Of a DNA stretch of 64,000 bases, positions 27,822-33,916 are shown piece after piece (positions within the stretch are counted from its first letter, which is position 1; each line of letters begins with the position of its first letter). The stretch spans positions 2,576,537 through 2,640,536 of the forward strand of contig OY969567.1 of assembly GCA_963701135.1 (NCBI GenBank). Reading direction: 5' to 3'. The stretch is from an uncultured Chloroflexia bacterium. GTDB taxonomy: Bacteria; Chloroflexota; Dehalococcoidia; DSTF01; JACRBR01. Below the pieces are notes generated by a model. The model saw nothing but the letters and a program-made list of their open reading frames with translations. It made no database searches and was not told the origin of the DNA. A program made the translations under genes and the position numbers.

Positions 27822-28485
27822 TATGCTGGCCGCGCTCGTGGCCGGTGTCATACTGGCCCCCTGGGTCGTACGCAATCAGCGCCAACTGGGCAGCCCCGTG
27901 ATCATCGCGACGAACTTCGGCCCGAATGTCTGGATCGGCAACCACGACGGCGCCTCGGGCCGGATGAACATCGGCGAGCCGGAGCCGCCGCAGCCGGAAC
28001 GGGGCGACCTGACGCAGCCGGAGTTCGAGGTGAAGGCGGACCGGCTCGCGCTTCGGAAGGGGCTCGGTTTTATGTTCACTCACCCGGCCGAAGAAGTGCG
28101 GCTCACCGCAACCAAGGTGCGGGCCATGTACGAGTCCGCCGCCACGGCGCTCGACTGGAGCTCGGCGTACAAGGCCGGCTTCTACTCGTCGCGGACGGCC
28201 GAAGACCGGCTGCGGGCGGCGGCCAACGGCTTCTGGTTCGCGGCGCTGGCGCTGGCGGCGCCGGGGTTCGTCGCGAGCCGGATGAAGCTCGGCAACGTCA
28301 TCGGCATCTTGCCGGCCATGGTGCTGCTCTGGACGGCGGCCCACCTGCTGTTCTTCGGCGACCCGCGCTTCCACTACGCGATCGTCTTCGCGTTCGCGCT
28401 GCTCGCCGCGCGCGGCCTGGTCGTGCTGTTCGAAGCCGTCGGCAGGCCGCAACCGGCCCTCGGCGGGAGGTACGTGCGGGCTTGA
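27822..28485 (+). pseudogene. N-terminally truncated remnant of a GT-C (PMT_2/ArnT-like) glycosyltransferase paralog (C-terminal ~220 aa only)
   Basis: Aligns with the C-terminal third of the two downstream paralogs, including the conserved FFGDPRFHY motif (paralogs FFGNQRFHF and FIGDPRYHF). It has no TM-rich N-terminal core, and no room for one exists between it and the upstream gene and repeat. Confidence 0.65.
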
Positions 28486-28559
28486 GCGTCGAGACACCGG
28501 CGGCCGTTCGCATCGAAGCCGGGGTGGCGCGCGACACGCCGGCGGTGCGTGCGTTCGCT

Positions 28560-29852
28560 ATGCGCCGCATCGACGTTCTCCTCATAGTCGCGCTGTTCAC
28601 CTTGGCAATCATTCCGCGCGCCGCGTGGGTCGCGTACCGCGACCGCGCACCTCAGGAAATCAGCGACCCGGCGCTGTACAGCATCTATAGTGACCAGATC
28701 GCGGACGGGAATGGCTACGCCCGCCTGACGGGCGAGAAAACCGCCTACTACCCTGTCGGATACCCCGCGACGGTGGCAGGGCTGAAGAAGGCCGGCGACA
28801 TCTTCGGTTGGGGGCGCAGCATCTTCTCGGTGAAGATGATGAACGGGATGTTCGGCGCCGTCACCGTGCTGCTCTTATACCTCCTGGCCTCGCGCATGTT
28901 TGACCGCCGCGTCGCCGTCGTCGCCGGCATGCTGGAGGCTACCTTTCCCAGTCAGGTGTACTACACCGGTGCGATTCTGTCAGAGCCGGAATTCACGATG
29001 CTTTTCGTCGCGGCGCTGCTGGTGCTGTTGTGGAAGCCGTGGACGCGCGGGGGCATGGCGTGCCCCCAACTCCTGTCCGCCGGCTTACTTCTCGGCGCCG
29101 GAACCATGGTTCGCGGAATCCTCGTCATCTTCCCCCTCGTGCTGCTGGCGGTCTGGCTTTATTACCTGCACTCGAAGAAGCGAGCGCTCTTGCAAGCGTT
29201 GACTGTGTTCGTTGGGATCTCCGTGTTTGTCGTCCCGTGGTCGATGCGCAATACGATCGTCTTCGGCGAGTTGACTGGACCATCGACGAATCTCGGTGAC
29301 GACCTGTGCATCGGCAACTTCAATCGCTCCCGCGGTAAGTTCACGCTCGAAGGGAAGTGCTTCGATGGTTACGAGGGACTGTCGCCGCAAGAGACAGAGT
29401 TGGAGCGCAACAAGCAGGGCCTGCGCATCGCCCTTCAGGACGTAATCACCCACCCCGCCCGAATGCCAGAGCTCATCGGCCAGAAGGCCTACTGGCTTTT
29501 CTACCAGGACGATGACGGCCTGAGTGCATCGATGGACTTCGGAAACAACGTGTTCATGTCCGGATACCGGCGAGAGGTGCTGAGCTTCGCGGCCAACGCT
29601 ATCTACTACGCGACGGCCGCCGTGACGATACTTGGCGCACTCGCCTTCGTGTGCTCTCGTGATCTGCGCCGACTGTTTGTACTCCTGTCGATGCTCTATG
29701 TGCTTGCGATGCCGCTCGTGTTTTTCGGCAACCAGCGGTTCCACTTCCCGGCGATCCCGCTCGCCGTGCTGATCACCGCCGCGACGATCGTCGCGATCTG
29801 GGACGGCCGCCGGCGGCGGCTTCCCGCCATGGAGCGGCTCGATGTTCGATAG
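28560..29852 (+). CDS. GT-C fold membrane glycosyltransferase (PMT_2 / ArnT / dolichyl-phosphate-mannose-protein mannosyltransferase-like)
   Basis: About 10 TM helices and the acidic loop SDPALYSIYSDQIADGNGYARL of GT-C/GT39/GT83-type enzymes. An alternative TTG start at 28482 overlaps the upstream stop. Confidence 0.7.
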   Translation: MRRIDVLLIVALFTLAIIPRAAWVAYRDRAPQEISDPALYSIYSDQIADGNGYARLTGEKTAYYPVGYPATVAGLKKAGDIFGWGRSIFSVKMMNGMFGAVTVLLLYLLASRMFDRRVAVVAGMLEATFPSQVYYTGAILSEPEFTMLFVAALLVLLWKPWTRGGMACPQLLSAGLLLGAGTMVRGILVIFPLVLLAVWLYYLHSKKRALLQALTVFVGISVFVVPWSMRNTIVFGELTGPSTNLGDDLCIGNFNRSRGKFTLEGKCFDGYEGLSPQETELERNKQGLRIALQDVITHPARMPELIGQKAYWLFYQDDDGLSASMDFGNNVFMSGYRREVLSFAANAIYYATAAVTILGALAFVCSRDLRRLFVLLSMLYVLAMPLVFFGNQRFHFPAIPLAVLITAATIVAIWDGRRRRLPAMERLDVR

Positions 29853-32433: not shown

Positions 32434-33134
32434 AGGCCGTGATCCTGGCCGGCGGCAAAGGCGTGCGGCTGCGGCCGCTCACGTACACGATCCCCAAACC
32501 GCTGTTGCCCGTCGGCGAGAAGCCGATCCTCGAAGAGATCATCGAGCGGCTGAAGGTCCACGGGTTCCACGATTTCATCATCGCGGTGGGGTATCGCGCG
32601 GAGCTGATCGAGACGTACTTCCGCGACGGCGAGCAGCTCGGCGTGCACATCGACTACGTGCGCGAGTCGCACGCGCTCGGCACGGCCGGCCCGTTGTCGC
32701 TGGTGCGCGCTTCGTTCGAGCTGCCGCCGGACGAGCCGCTGCTGGCGATGAACGGCGACATCCTGACGGACCTGGACATGACGGCGTTTATGGAGTTCCA
32801 CCGCCGCGGCGGCTACGAGGTAAGCGTCGCCACGCGGGAGTTCCGGCTCCAGCACCCGTACGGCGTCGTCGAGGTCGACGGCGAGCGCGTCACGGGCATC
32901 GTCGAGAAGCCGGTCGAGACGGACATCGTGAGCGCGGGCGTGTACGCCATCCAGCCGTCGGCGCTGGACGTGATCCCGTACAACAGCTTCTTCGACATCC
33001 CGGACCTGGTGAACCGGCTGCTGGCCGATGGCCGCCCGGTGGGCGCGTACCAGTTCACCGACGACTGGCTGGCGATCGACCGCATCGACCAGCTCGAGGA
33101 CGCGGCGCGCATGCTGGCGGAGCGCCACGCATGA
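32430..33134 (+). CDS. Sugar-phosphate nucleotidyltransferase (NTP_transferase family)
   Basis: [28 protein letters not shown] N-terminal signature. ATGA overlap with the epimerase. Confidence 0.8.
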   Translation: [234 protein letters not shown]

Positions 33135-33916
33135 AGCTCTCGATCGTGATCCCCGTCCGCAACGAGCGCGACACGGTGGCGCCGCTGATCGAGCGCGTGC
33201 GCGCGGTGGACTGCGGCATGCCGAAGGAGCTGATCGTGGTCGATGGCGCATCGACCGACGGGACGCGCGAGGCGCTGCTGGCGATGGAGCCGGCCGGCGA
33301 CCTGGTGCTCGTGCTCGAAGACGCCGCCCGGGGCAAGGGGCGCGCCGTCCGCACCGGGTTCGAGCGGGCGAGCGGAGAGATCGTGATGGTGCAGGACGCG
33401 GACCTGGAGCTGGACCCATCGGAGATCCCGTCGCTGCTGGCGCCGATCGTCGAGGGGCGGACCGGCGTGGTGTTCGGCTCGCGCTTCAAGGGGCGCGGCC
33501 GCGGCAGGACGCCGCTGGTGGGCTACGCCGGCAACTTCATGCTGACGTGGGCGGCCAACGTGCTGTACTTCACGCGGCTCAGCGACATCCTCACGTGTTA
33601 CAAGGTGATGCTGACGGGCGTGGCGCGCGGGCTCGACCTCACGTGCGACGGCTTCGACCTGGACGCGGAGATCACGTGCCGGCTGCTGCGCGACGGCTAC
33701 CGCATCGTCGAAGTGCCCGTGACGTACGAGCCGCGCGGCGCGGACGAGGGGAAGAAGCTCAGTCCCGGCGCCGGGTGGAGCGTGCTGCGGGCGATCGTGC
33801 GCGTGCGCTTCTCGCGCGGGCGGCGGCGCGTCGAGCCGATCATGGCGGCCGCGGAGCCGCCTGTGCGCACGCCGGCCGGCGCGGCGAGCGCGCGCGACGG
33901 CGACGAGCAGCGTTGA
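33131..33916 (+). CDS. Family 2 glycosyltransferase (polyprenyl-phosphate sugar synthase-like: DPM1/ArnC/GtrB type)
   Basis: LSIVIPVRNE, DGASTDGT, VQDADLE motifs of GT2 Dpm1/GtrB-like enzymes. ATGA overlap with the upstream gene. Confidence 0.75.
   Translation: MKLSIVIPVRNERDTVAPLIERVRAVDCGMPKELIVVDGASTDGTREALLAMEPAGDLVLVLEDAARGKGRAVRTGFERASGEIVMVQDADLELDPSEIPSLLAPIVEGRTGVVFGSRFKGRGRGRTPLVGYAGNFMLTWAANVLYFTRLSDILTCYKVMLTGVARGLDLTCDGFDLDAEITCRLLRDGYRIVEVPVTYEPRGADEGKKLSPGAGWSVLRAIVRVRFSRGRRRVEPIMAAAEPPVRTPAGAASARDGDEQR

Follow-up and report, generated by a model that had tools for sequence, protein, structure and literature searches.

The window analysed here is a stretch of 64,000 nucleotides from contig OY969567.1 of an uncultured Chloroflexia bacterium, and our subject is a run of genes between 27.8 and 33.9 kb that encodes putative membrane glycosyltransferases of the GT-C class together with sugar-nucleotide enzymes. 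The whole window is 69% G+C and its raw lists of open reading frames (ORFs) are crowded with spurious frames; we picked the coding frame by the G+C content of third codon positions (GC3), by which one frame stands out at each point. Only the plus strand is coding in this interval, and GC3 frame analysis with start-codon mapping yielded seven co-directional ORFs at 27823-33916, designated GA to GG (Table 1), with the same gene models in public gene calls. GA is the remnant of a GT-C gene, GB and GC are complete GT-C genes, GD encodes a 74-aa membrane protein, GE a short-chain dehydrogenase/reductase (SDR), GF a sugar nucleotidyltransferase and GG a family 2 glycosyltransferase (GT2). Successive ORFs from GA to GG overlap by 4, 11, 4, 17, 4 and 4 nt (TTGA, ATG...TAG, GTGA, GTG...TAA, ATGA and ATGA, respectively). 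A previous sequence-only reading had counted eight plus-strand genes with overlaps of 4-16 nt; the co-directional, coupled run of overlapping ORFs stands, with seven genes in place of eight and a range of 4-17 nt. GB may start at ATG 28560, because its residues 1-28 are not conserved, giving a protein of 430 aa and a gap of 74 nt after GA. No prominent intrinsic terminator was found within the GA-GG run. The sole plus-strand sigma-70-like site, a consensus match in a scan restricted to sigma-70 consensus sites that returned 2 sites in the region vs. 0.7 expected, lies past GG and probably represents the start of the next transcription unit, thereby marking the 3' end of the operon.

The run is more than a chance neighbourhood, as shown by the conservation of its gene order in 29 informative species-level relatives. 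A synteny scan with one genome per species gave 45 loci, of which 33 are orthologous (identity to GC of at least 44%), all of them in metagenome-assembled genomes (MAGs) of Chloroflexota/Dehalococcoidia with no cultured carrier among them, and 29 carry enough downstream sequence to be informative. The recurrent order is acyltransferase-3 (present in 12 of the 33 orthologous loci), a gene of unassigned family that we call hyp503, a first GT-C gene (GTC1), GB, GC, the 74-aa gene, SDR, nucleotidyltransferase and GT2, followed by genes for a HEAT-repeat protein, a NUDIX hydrolase and a GNAT acetyltransferase. SDR, nucleotidyltransferase and GT2 directly follow the GT-C genes in 23 of the 29 informative loci, with the 74-aa gene in between in 20 and with the GT2 cut by the contig end in one of the 23 (L008); two of the three donor genes are present in 3/29 and none in 3/29 (L001, L003 and L004). 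The co-location proposed by the sequence-only reading thus extends to most relatives, in which these genes are contiguous and not scattered; three relatives retain the GT-C genes and the 74-aa gene in the absence of SDR, nucleotidyltransferase and GT2.

Table 1. Features of the gene run and of its borders in the 64,000-nucleotide window
Feature	Position	Strand	Remarks
Rearrangement breakpoint	27745-27792		Upstream DNA unrelated to the upstream genes of relatives
GA, 3' remnant of the first GT-C paralog GTC1 (residues 205-433)	27793-28485	+	tblastn vs. L001
GA, ORF	27823-28485	+	220 aa
GB	28482-29852	+	456 aa
GC	29842-31236	+	464 aa
GD	31233-31457	+	74 aa
GE	31441-32433	+	330 aa
GF	32430-33134	+	234 aa
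GG	33131-33916	+	261 aa
Sigma-70-like site TTGACA-18-TAGACT	33913-33942	+	10/12 consensus matches; just past the GG stop
HEAT-repeat protein	34021-34410 and 34415-34957, two frames	+	Single 320-aa gene in relatives
NUDIX hydrolase	34981-35436	+	Conserved downstream neighbour
GNAT acetyltransferase	35430-35975	+	Conserved downstream neighbour

Among the three candidate donor-synthesis enzymes, GE is an extended SDR that is 80-90% identical across relatives, with Pfam matches to GDP_Man_Dehyd (230 bits) and Epimerase (188 bits) and with an active site (T-S-E, YxxxK) of the dehydratase/decarboxylase type. Its best NCBIfam match is LegB (TIGR04180, 416 bits), followed by RmlB (168 bits) and GalE (136 bits). 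The STSEVYG stretch of GE (within TSTSEVYG) aligns to STDEVYG of the dTDP-glucose 4,6-dehydratase DesIV, which holds the catalytic D-E pair, and the glutamate corresponding to E129 of DesIV is kept; the epimerases matched by GE, 7ys8 and MoeE5, have no glutamate at this dehydratase position. The LegB score stays below the cut-off of 475 bits, and no Leg aminotransferase or NeuABC genes were found within 26000-36200; likewise, the score with galE (TIGR01179) is well under the cut-off of 262 bits. A GMD/LegB-like dehydratase acting on a nucleotide sugar fits these features better than a decarboxylase, and the T-S-E motif together with the LegB-best score makes the 4-epimerase proposed by the sequence-only reading the least likely assignment. 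We surmise a hexose or N-acetylhexosamine (HexNAc), 6-deoxy or 4-keto-6-deoxy, as the probable sugar. GF is a short-form sugar-1-phosphate nucleotidyltransferase (Pfam NTP_transferase, 136 bits); its best NCBIfam matches are the archaeal GlmU N-domain, mannose-1-phosphate guanylyltransferase and MurU, all under cut-off, and its matches in the PDB are the UTP-glucose-1-phosphate and GDP-mannose pyrophosphorylases. GG has a Glycos_transf_2 domain (93 bits in Pfam) and a DAD motif, and its nearest PDB structure is 5mlz, the dolichol-phosphate mannose synthase (DPMS) of P. furiosus (residues 1-225, E 1.4e-17), followed by ArnC. NCBIfam scores of GG are 124 bits for AglJ (TIGR04182, cut-off 325), 62 for the dolichol-phosphate hexose transferase NF041391 (cut-off 375), 52 for ArnC (NF007986, cut-off 529) and 37 for PpgS. 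Hydropathy analysis of GG revealed no hydrophobic segment and no transmembrane (TM) helix, and none of its 90 invariant sites is altered. GG thus has the sequence features of a polyprenyl-phosphate glycosyl synthase-type GT2 (DPMS/ArnC/AglJ-like), in keeping with the Dpm1/ArnC/GtrB-like GT2 of the sequence-only reading, which had also recognised GF as a sugar nucleotidyltransferase.

The candidate transferases GB and GC match PMT_2 (PF13231) with 36.1 and 54.8 bits, respectively, vs. a cut-off of 26.1, and GC also matches PMT (PF02366; 29.2 bits vs. a cut-off of 22.7), with GB just under that cut-off at 22.1. GB has roughly 8-11 hydrophobic segments, and GB, GC and GTC1 are mutually homologous (hhalign E 1e-50 to 1e-59). 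An AlphaFold2 model of GC built on 13 homologs (pLDDT 85, pTM 0.88) retrieved GT-C enzymes only in a Foldseek search, namely STT3, AglB, ArnT, ALG3/9, GPI-MT-I, Pmt and DPY19, with TM-scores of ~0.5 across all GT-C-A families. In GT-C enzymes, the catalytic acidic residues sit in the extracytoplasmic loop that follows the first TM helix. In GC, an invariant PRDGRxDD motif lies in this loop, directly after the first TM helix (model helix 12-34), with D41, D45 and D46 invariant in the 13 homologs, and GB has DR.P...dP at the equivalent position. Both GB and GC can therefore be considered full GT-C proteins of PMT_2/ArnT-like type, as proposed before; the score of GB with the ArnT equivalog NF009784 is 17 bits vs. 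a cut-off of 567. Only 1 of 47 invariant sites is altered in GC, conservatively, vs. 9 of 85 otherwise invariant sites in GB, including the change of FFGDPRF, a motif common to all three GT-C paralog families, to FFGNQRF. With species representatives, GB shares no more than 67% identity, and its GC3 is the lowest of the run. Its lower G+C was considered as a sign of foreign origin and set aside, given that GB of the near-identical strain L048 is also below its flanks, so that this looks like a family property. GB is an unusual allele that may reflect a new specificity or a loss of function, and the only working transferases left to the locus in this genome would be GC, certainly, and GB, possibly.

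The protein hyp503, encoded upstream of GTC1 in relatives, matches no Pfam family, and profile-profile comparison with the three GT-C families was not significant (P 0.004-0.017). Its model, of medium confidence (pLDDT 65.6), had GT-C proteins in all of the top 28 PDB matches, including STT3/AglB/PglB, AftA and Emb, and a few hyp503 orthologs pass the PMT or PMT_2 threshold. These matches suggest that hyp503 is a GT-C-type protein, in which case the ancestral locus would have comprised four of them (hyp503, GTC1, GB and GC).

GD comprises two TM helices as judged by hydropathy, with both ends predicted to be cytoplasmic by the positive-inside rule, and its 31 orthologs share an N-terminal NPxxSHWxR, a second TM helix of the form TLYxW..V..ILAL.A and an Arg-rich tail; none of its 18 invariant sites is altered here. 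A phmmer search of 1.84 billion proteins recovered 12 representatives, all from one small family and all stand-alone, and the two longer matches inspected as possible Rosetta-stone fusions were mis-called frameshifted ORFs. The sequence-only reading had placed GD in the role of a GtrA/ArnE-F-type flippase. In searches at E<=10, GD and 15 orthologs gave noise-level Pfam matches only, with no GtrA (PF04138), SMR, DUF2304/GacJ, Dpm2, Dpm3, MATE or Wzx among them, and no fitting NCBIfam family for GD. That GD acts as a carrier-lipid flippase, perhaps as an oligomer of two-TM subunits, is a conjecture from position only and in our opinion doubtful. The gene does sit between the GT-C and the donor-synthesis genes, is strictly conserved (30 of 32 close loci) and is joined in the operon by no other flippase candidate. 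Besides its lack of similarity to GtrA, SMR/ArnEF, MATE and Wzx, GD has two TM helices with no conserved charged or polar intramembrane residue other than T41/Y43, and its strongest conservation, in NPxxSHWxR and the Arg-rich tail, falls on stretches predicted to face the cytoplasm, as would befit contacts between proteins; moreover, GD is missing from L028 and L030, the orthologous loci at the greatest distance, where GT-C genes and GT2 module are both present. For small membrane proteins as stimulators or anchors of a GT2 there is precedent in GacJ and Rv3632 (10.1101/180810) and in Dpm2 and Dpm3 (PMC7728079), and flippase roles, including that of GtrA, are unproven even in the prototype systems (PMC11127046). 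Given these known partners and the unproven role of GtrA, we think that GD is more likely an accessory or anchoring partner of a GT-C or GT2 than a flippase. The GT2s of L028 and L030 have no TM helices of their own, an observation by which the idea that GD anchors the GT2 gains no support, nor is it refuted.

Taken by the sequence-only reading as a gene of its own, GA proved in tblastn comparison to be a truncated third GT-C paralog, retaining only residues 205-433 of the 433-aa GTC1 of L001 (its C-terminal 229 residues, 73% identity). The tandem GT-C genes of L001 encode proteins of 433, 458 and 464 aa, and L048, a near-identical strain represented by a Logan contig, has a GTC1 of at least 380 aa. 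Nucleotide homology between the window and L048 begins abruptly at 27783, with 99% identity, and an independent Logan contig (L047) shows the GA junction with every base identical, so that the truncation is no artefact of this assembly. GA lacks the N-terminal half, where the PMT_2 domain and the acidic loop motif after the first TM helix lie, and gave no Pfam match. In an alignment of 26 orthologs, 4 of 38 family-invariant sites are altered in GA, 3 of them unaltered in L048. We surmise that GA is a recently truncated gene that is probably non-functional. In place of the acyltransferase, hyp503 and the 5' part of GTC1 found upstream in relatives, the window has a minus-strand ORF and 167-bp repeats, and a rearrangement has severed the locus of this genome inside GTC1. 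An ortholog of hyp503 (P0139, 79% identical to that of L001) was found outside the window, and, rather than being lost, the missing 5' part was probably relocated within this genome; a search of the same genome with residues 1-147 of L048 GTC1 gave only 6 short unrelated matches.

The minus-strand ORF (27223-27744), which occupies the exact place of the missing 5' part, encodes 173 aa with a GC3 of 0.90, a Pro/Ala/Glu-rich middle and a C-terminal TM anchor; it matched no Pfam or NCBIfam family and has no counterpart in 46 related loci. A -35/-10-like TTGTGA-17-TATAAT (27771-27743) overlaps its annotated start. Next to it, a 167-bp unit is present in 2.2 tandem copies of 98% identity at 26784-27147, with diverged copies (72-84%) at 22168-22249 (minus), 22331-22386 (plus), 36049-36157 (minus) and 36227-36270 (plus), in the intergenic gaps between the genes for a phosphotriesterase-family (PTE) protein and RNase Y and between those for GNAT and cobA-hemD; copies of the unit are thus found on either side of the glycosylation region. 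A hairpin, GCGCGGGC-TTTTCA-GCCCGCGC, lies within the unit, and the repeat region had no match in Rfam. The unit could be an element resembling a miniature inverted-repeat transposable element (MITE) or a repetitive extragenic palindrome (REP), and GTC1 may have been truncated through a rearrangement that it mediated.

Comparison with L048 revealed a mosaic. Amino acid identity is 94% for GA, 67% for GB, 59% for GC, 97% for GD, 96% for GE, 97% for GF, 97% for GG and 95% for the N-terminal part of the HEAT protein, and nucleotide identity drops at the GA/GB and GC/GD gene boundaries, delimiting a divergent stretch at 28547-31237. Among species representatives, the nearest alleles of GB/GC are those of L003/L002 for the window and of L016/L006 for L048. 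Divergent GB-GC genes between near-identical flanks, with nearest alleles from different lineages, point to a recombinational swap of a GB-GC specificity cassette between strains, as with gtrC. In gtr clusters, gtrA and gtrB are conserved and gtrC is serotype-specific (PMC11127046 and general knowledge), and the likeness of this pattern of conserved donor genes and variable GT-C genes supports, by analogy, the notion that the GT-Cs would determine specificity. This cassette swap and the four-GT-C ancestral architecture are additions to what the sequence-only reading had proposed.

Taken together, these data lead us to favor, with a probability of roughly 0.65, the interpretation that the run is the 3' two-thirds of a conserved, clade-specific and uncharacterised operon for lipid-carrier-dependent envelope glycosylation in Chloroflexota, within soil and groundwater lineages of the Dehalococcoidia. 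The gene models, the assignments to families and folds, the synteny, the truncation and the mosaic of alleles are observed; we propose the steps of the pathway, the side of the membrane on which each takes place, the sugar and the acceptor by homology, as we do for all functional statements here. In the cytoplasm, GF would activate a sugar-1-phosphate to a nucleoside diphosphate (NDP)-sugar, which GE, as a LegB/GMD-like SDR with T-S-E, would oxidise or dehydrate, yielding not a simple 4-epimer but likely a hexose or HexNAc of the 4-keto-6-deoxy or 6-deoxy type. [quoted passage not shown] Outside, the paralogous GT-Cs (ancestrally hyp503, GTC1, GB and GC) would transfer the sugar to one or more acceptors, be it a protein, a glycolipid or a wall polymer. 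The GT-C genes would carry the specificity and be exchanged between strains as a cassette, with the donor-synthesis genes conserved, as for gtrC vs. gtrA/gtrB, and GD would be a dedicated membrane subunit of this machinery.

Several observations weigh against this interpretation: 1) in Pfam and NCBIfam searches, no GtrA, SMR, MATE or Wzx flippase was recognisable in the operon GA-GG; 2) every enzyme score falls below the NCBIfam equivalog cut-offs, so that the GA-GG enzymes are, as far as these profiles tell, homologous to the named families but outside characterised groups of orthologs; 3) the operon encodes neither a reductase nor an aminotransferase to partner the 4,6-dehydratase, which leaves the final sugar unexplained, and the genes inserted in the loci of relatives, inspected for such clues, were unrelated or on the opposite strand; 4) with GA truncated and GB altered at 9 invariant sites, this copy may have lost its activity in part or in full; 5) GT-C genes can persist with no adjacent donor module, as exemplified by L001 and L003, with four GT-C genes and GD but no GE, GF or GG nearby, by L004, which has only decayed remnants (a 41-aa piece of the nucleotidyltransferase and a frameshifted GT2), by L010 and L012 without GG and by L017 without GE. 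In all six, the GT-C genes and the 74-aa gene are intact. Loss or decay of the donor-synthesis module has occurred repeatedly, and the coupling of the two halves, as L001, L003 and L004 indicate, is frequent but not obligatory.

This last pattern would also be expected if the locus were two independent neighbouring modules, with the GT-Cs and GD using a housekeeping lipid donor, e.g. polyprenyl-phosphate-mannose or -glucose, and GE-GF-GG making another product, the two being adjacent through shared history. The intact hyp503, three GT-Cs and GD of L001 and L003, the remnants beside intact GT-Cs in L004, the incomplete modules of L010, L012 and L017 and the translational coupling of GD to GC, with GD kept where GG is lost, all fit such a division. 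Nevertheless, in 23 of the 29 informative loci the two halves adjoin each other on one strand, their ORFs overlapping or abutting, the distant loci L034, L035, L043 and L046 also pair GT-C/hyp503-like genes with a GT2, and it is established that a polyprenyl-phosphate GT2 has no consumer known besides GT-C-type enzymes (PMC11127046); genomes devoid of the module may in addition hold a replacement GT2 elsewhere. We regard two separate modules as unlikely. As for the GT-Cs themselves, they could be oligosaccharyltransferase-like or polymerase/ligase-like enzymes that use a pyrophosphate-linked oligosaccharide donor in the manner of STT3, AglB and PglB, the top Foldseek matches of the GC and hyp503 models, and the best NCBIfam matches of GC do include archaeal STT3 and Agl23 at ~26-27 bits. 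Against this stand the TM-scores, which are about equal for all GT-C-A families, with ArnT, ALG and Pmt matched too; the length of GC, only 464 aa, with no C-terminal periplasmic domain of the oligosaccharyltransferase type; its Pfam families PMT_2/PMT, which use polyprenyl-phosphate-monosaccharide donors; the co-located GT2 of the monophosphate-donor type; and the lack of a phosphoglycosyltransferase or Wzx gene in the locus. Such a donor is, in our view, very improbable.

A further possibility pertains to this genome rather than to the family, i.e. that its copy of the locus is a functionless relic in decay, the promoter-proximal part having been removed by the rearrangement and the rest now drifting. 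Features compatible with decay include the 5' truncation of GA and its 3 private changes at invariant sites, the 9 invariant-site changes and low GC3 of GB, the absence of hyp503 and the acyltransferase from the window and the lack of a plus-strand promoter-like site upstream of GA/GB, the last in a scan limited to sigma-70 consensus sites. On the other hand, each of GC, GD, GE, GF and GG is altered at 0-1 of its 18-156 invariant sites and is free of frameshifts, despite frame breaks in many other genes of the assembly; the retained genes have intact ORFs, 96-97% identical to those of L048 (59% for GC), and their GC3 of 0.91-0.97 is typical of expressed genes in the window. On balance, we do not expect the whole run to be a relic, and hold an envelope-glycosylation operon that has lost its 5' third to be the better account. 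The frame breaks just mentioned affect rpoB, groEL, hemA/hemC and the HEAT gene, and these splits, essential genes included, most likely reflect indel errors of the assembly, rendering frameshift-based pseudogene calls in this window unreliable; the truncation of GA is unlike these frameshift artefacts and is independently confirmed. In rpoB (59235-62975), domains 1-2, 3, 6 and 6-7 are spread over at least 4 ORFs, groEL (43360-45104, minus strand) is in two pieces, and hemA/hemC (38321-39344, minus strand) and HEAT (34021-34957) are split here, with the hemA-hemC fusion and HEAT being single genes in L001.

The trio HEAT-NUDIX-GNAT (about 33964-35975) trails the locus in nearly all close relatives (24 related loci), even in L001 and L003 without GE-GG, and is absent from the distant L028 and L030. 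NUDIX and GNAT gave generic NCBIfam matches only, with no sugar-nucleotide-specific family among them, and were not counted as part of the system. Elsewhere in the window, an intact-looking ISL3-family transposase with DDE_Tnp_ISL3, zinc-ribbon and HTH domains lies at 55224-56378 (plus strand), and a 174-aa protein with an N-terminal double CxxC (zinc-ribbon-like) followed by approximately four hydrophobic helices, matching no Pfam or NCBIfam family, is encoded at 26227-26751 (plus strand) between a PHP-domain gene and the repeat array. ARAGORN called a tRNA-Leu at 17767-17851 (plus strand), inside the 5' extension of an ORF at 17707-19035 whose ABC_tran domain starts at residue 127. A scan of the whole window at the Rfam gathering threshold gave no RNA family, and the tRNA-Leu was either missed by the Rfam filters or is a doubtful call.

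O-glycosylated surface filaments have been observed in Chloroflexota, with no machinery assigned to them (PMC12488501), and envelope and surface glycans are little known in "Dehalococcoidia" other than Dehalococcoidales, which are abundant in soils and aquifers. The present locus represents a compact, widely conserved candidate for such machinery, and having its own donor pathway, its chemistry could be reconstituted in vitro. GD represents a new lineage-restricted family tied to GT-C and GT2 that could bear on the handover or flipping of lipid-linked donors, and the near-identical donor genes vs. divergent GT-C alleles suggest diversification of a surface glycan, an ecological signal that could be mined from metagenomes. 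More tentatively, we speculate that the locus is a Chloroflexota-specific glycan assembly line, in which three to four GT-Cs assemble or modify a surface glycan with one polyprenyl-phosphate-linked 6-deoxy or 4-keto sugar, the 74-aa two-TM protein is a new subunit in the place of GtrA or SMR, and exchange of GB-GC between conserved flanks swaps the glycotype. This picture is possible but rather improbable as a whole; if it is true, uncultured soil bacteria would vary their surface in a serotype-like manner, presumably under pressure from phages or predators. No current concept is overturned; what these findings add is the extension of a known mechanism to a phylum that has been little studied.

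The logic of the locus mirrors that of the Gtr, Arn and Ppm/Pmt systems with a different gene set, as the sequence-only reading had noted. By sequence, the locus is not a member of any family compared here: of the three parts of a three-component system it has, by homology, a polyprenyl-phosphate synthase and also a GT-C transferase, but no dedicated flippase, and all equivalog scores fall short. It shares with GtrA/B/C, ArnC/ArnE-F/ArnT and the pentofuranose systems (PMC11127046) the genetic linkage of a polyprenyl-phosphate GT2 to a GT-C, and with Gtr-type systems the conserved donor genes beside GT-C genes that, like gtrC, vary between strains. In contrast to Gtr and Arn, there is no GtrA, SMR or MATE homolog; GG lacks the two C-terminal TM helices of GtrB and ArnC; and the single GT-C of these systems is replaced by three to four tandem GT-C paralogs plus genes for NDP-sugar synthesis, with GB and GG scoring far under the ArnT and ArnC equivalog cut-offs. 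LegB, a GDP-GlcNAc 4,6-dehydratase of legionaminic acid synthesis, is the best family for GE and has the same T-S-E/YxxxK active site, but with its score under cut-off and no LegC aminotransferase or NeuA/B/C-like genes in the operon, this would not be a nonulosonic-acid pathway.

The streptococcal GacI/J/K/L and mycobacterial PpgS/Rv3632/Rv3779 systems, which add GlcNAc/GalNAc side chains, are similar in having a GT2 for polyprenyl-phosphate-HexNAc, an adjacent small membrane protein and an external GT-C (10.1101/180810), and PpgS is among the NCBIfam matches of GG. GacJ is a DUF2304 protein with 3 TM helices beside the GT2, whereas GD is not DUF2304, has 2 TM helices and is coupled to a GT-C gene, and the Wzx-like GacK has no counterpart in the locus. 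With Dpm1-3 plus PMT and actinobacterial Ppm1 plus Pmt (GT39), the likeness lies in GG, which is nearest to DPMS and, like human DPM1, has no TM anchor, and in the PMT_2 matches of GB and GC and the PMT match of GC; NCBI names the relatives 'glycosyltransferase family 39'. On the other hand, the linked SDR would imply a modified sugar and not mannose, the GT-Cs are of ~460 aa, and GD is dissimilar to Dpm2 and Dpm3. Finally, EmbC-EmbA-EmbB/Aft and Mpt of mycobacteria comprise several GT-C paralogs, partly in tandem, that build a polymer outside the membrane from one polyprenyl-phosphate-monosaccharide donor, and, as mentioned, AftA and Emb are among the fold matches of hyp503. Emb and Aft are larger, with C-terminal carbohydrate-binding domains that the much smaller enzymes here do not have, and their donor comes from a PRPP (phosphoribosyl pyrophosphate)-dependent UbiA-type enzyme in place of a GT2. 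By analogy, the Emb/Aft/Mpt arrangement of several external transferases served by a single lipid-linked sugar is a plausible model for the four-GT-C locus of these Chloroflexota.

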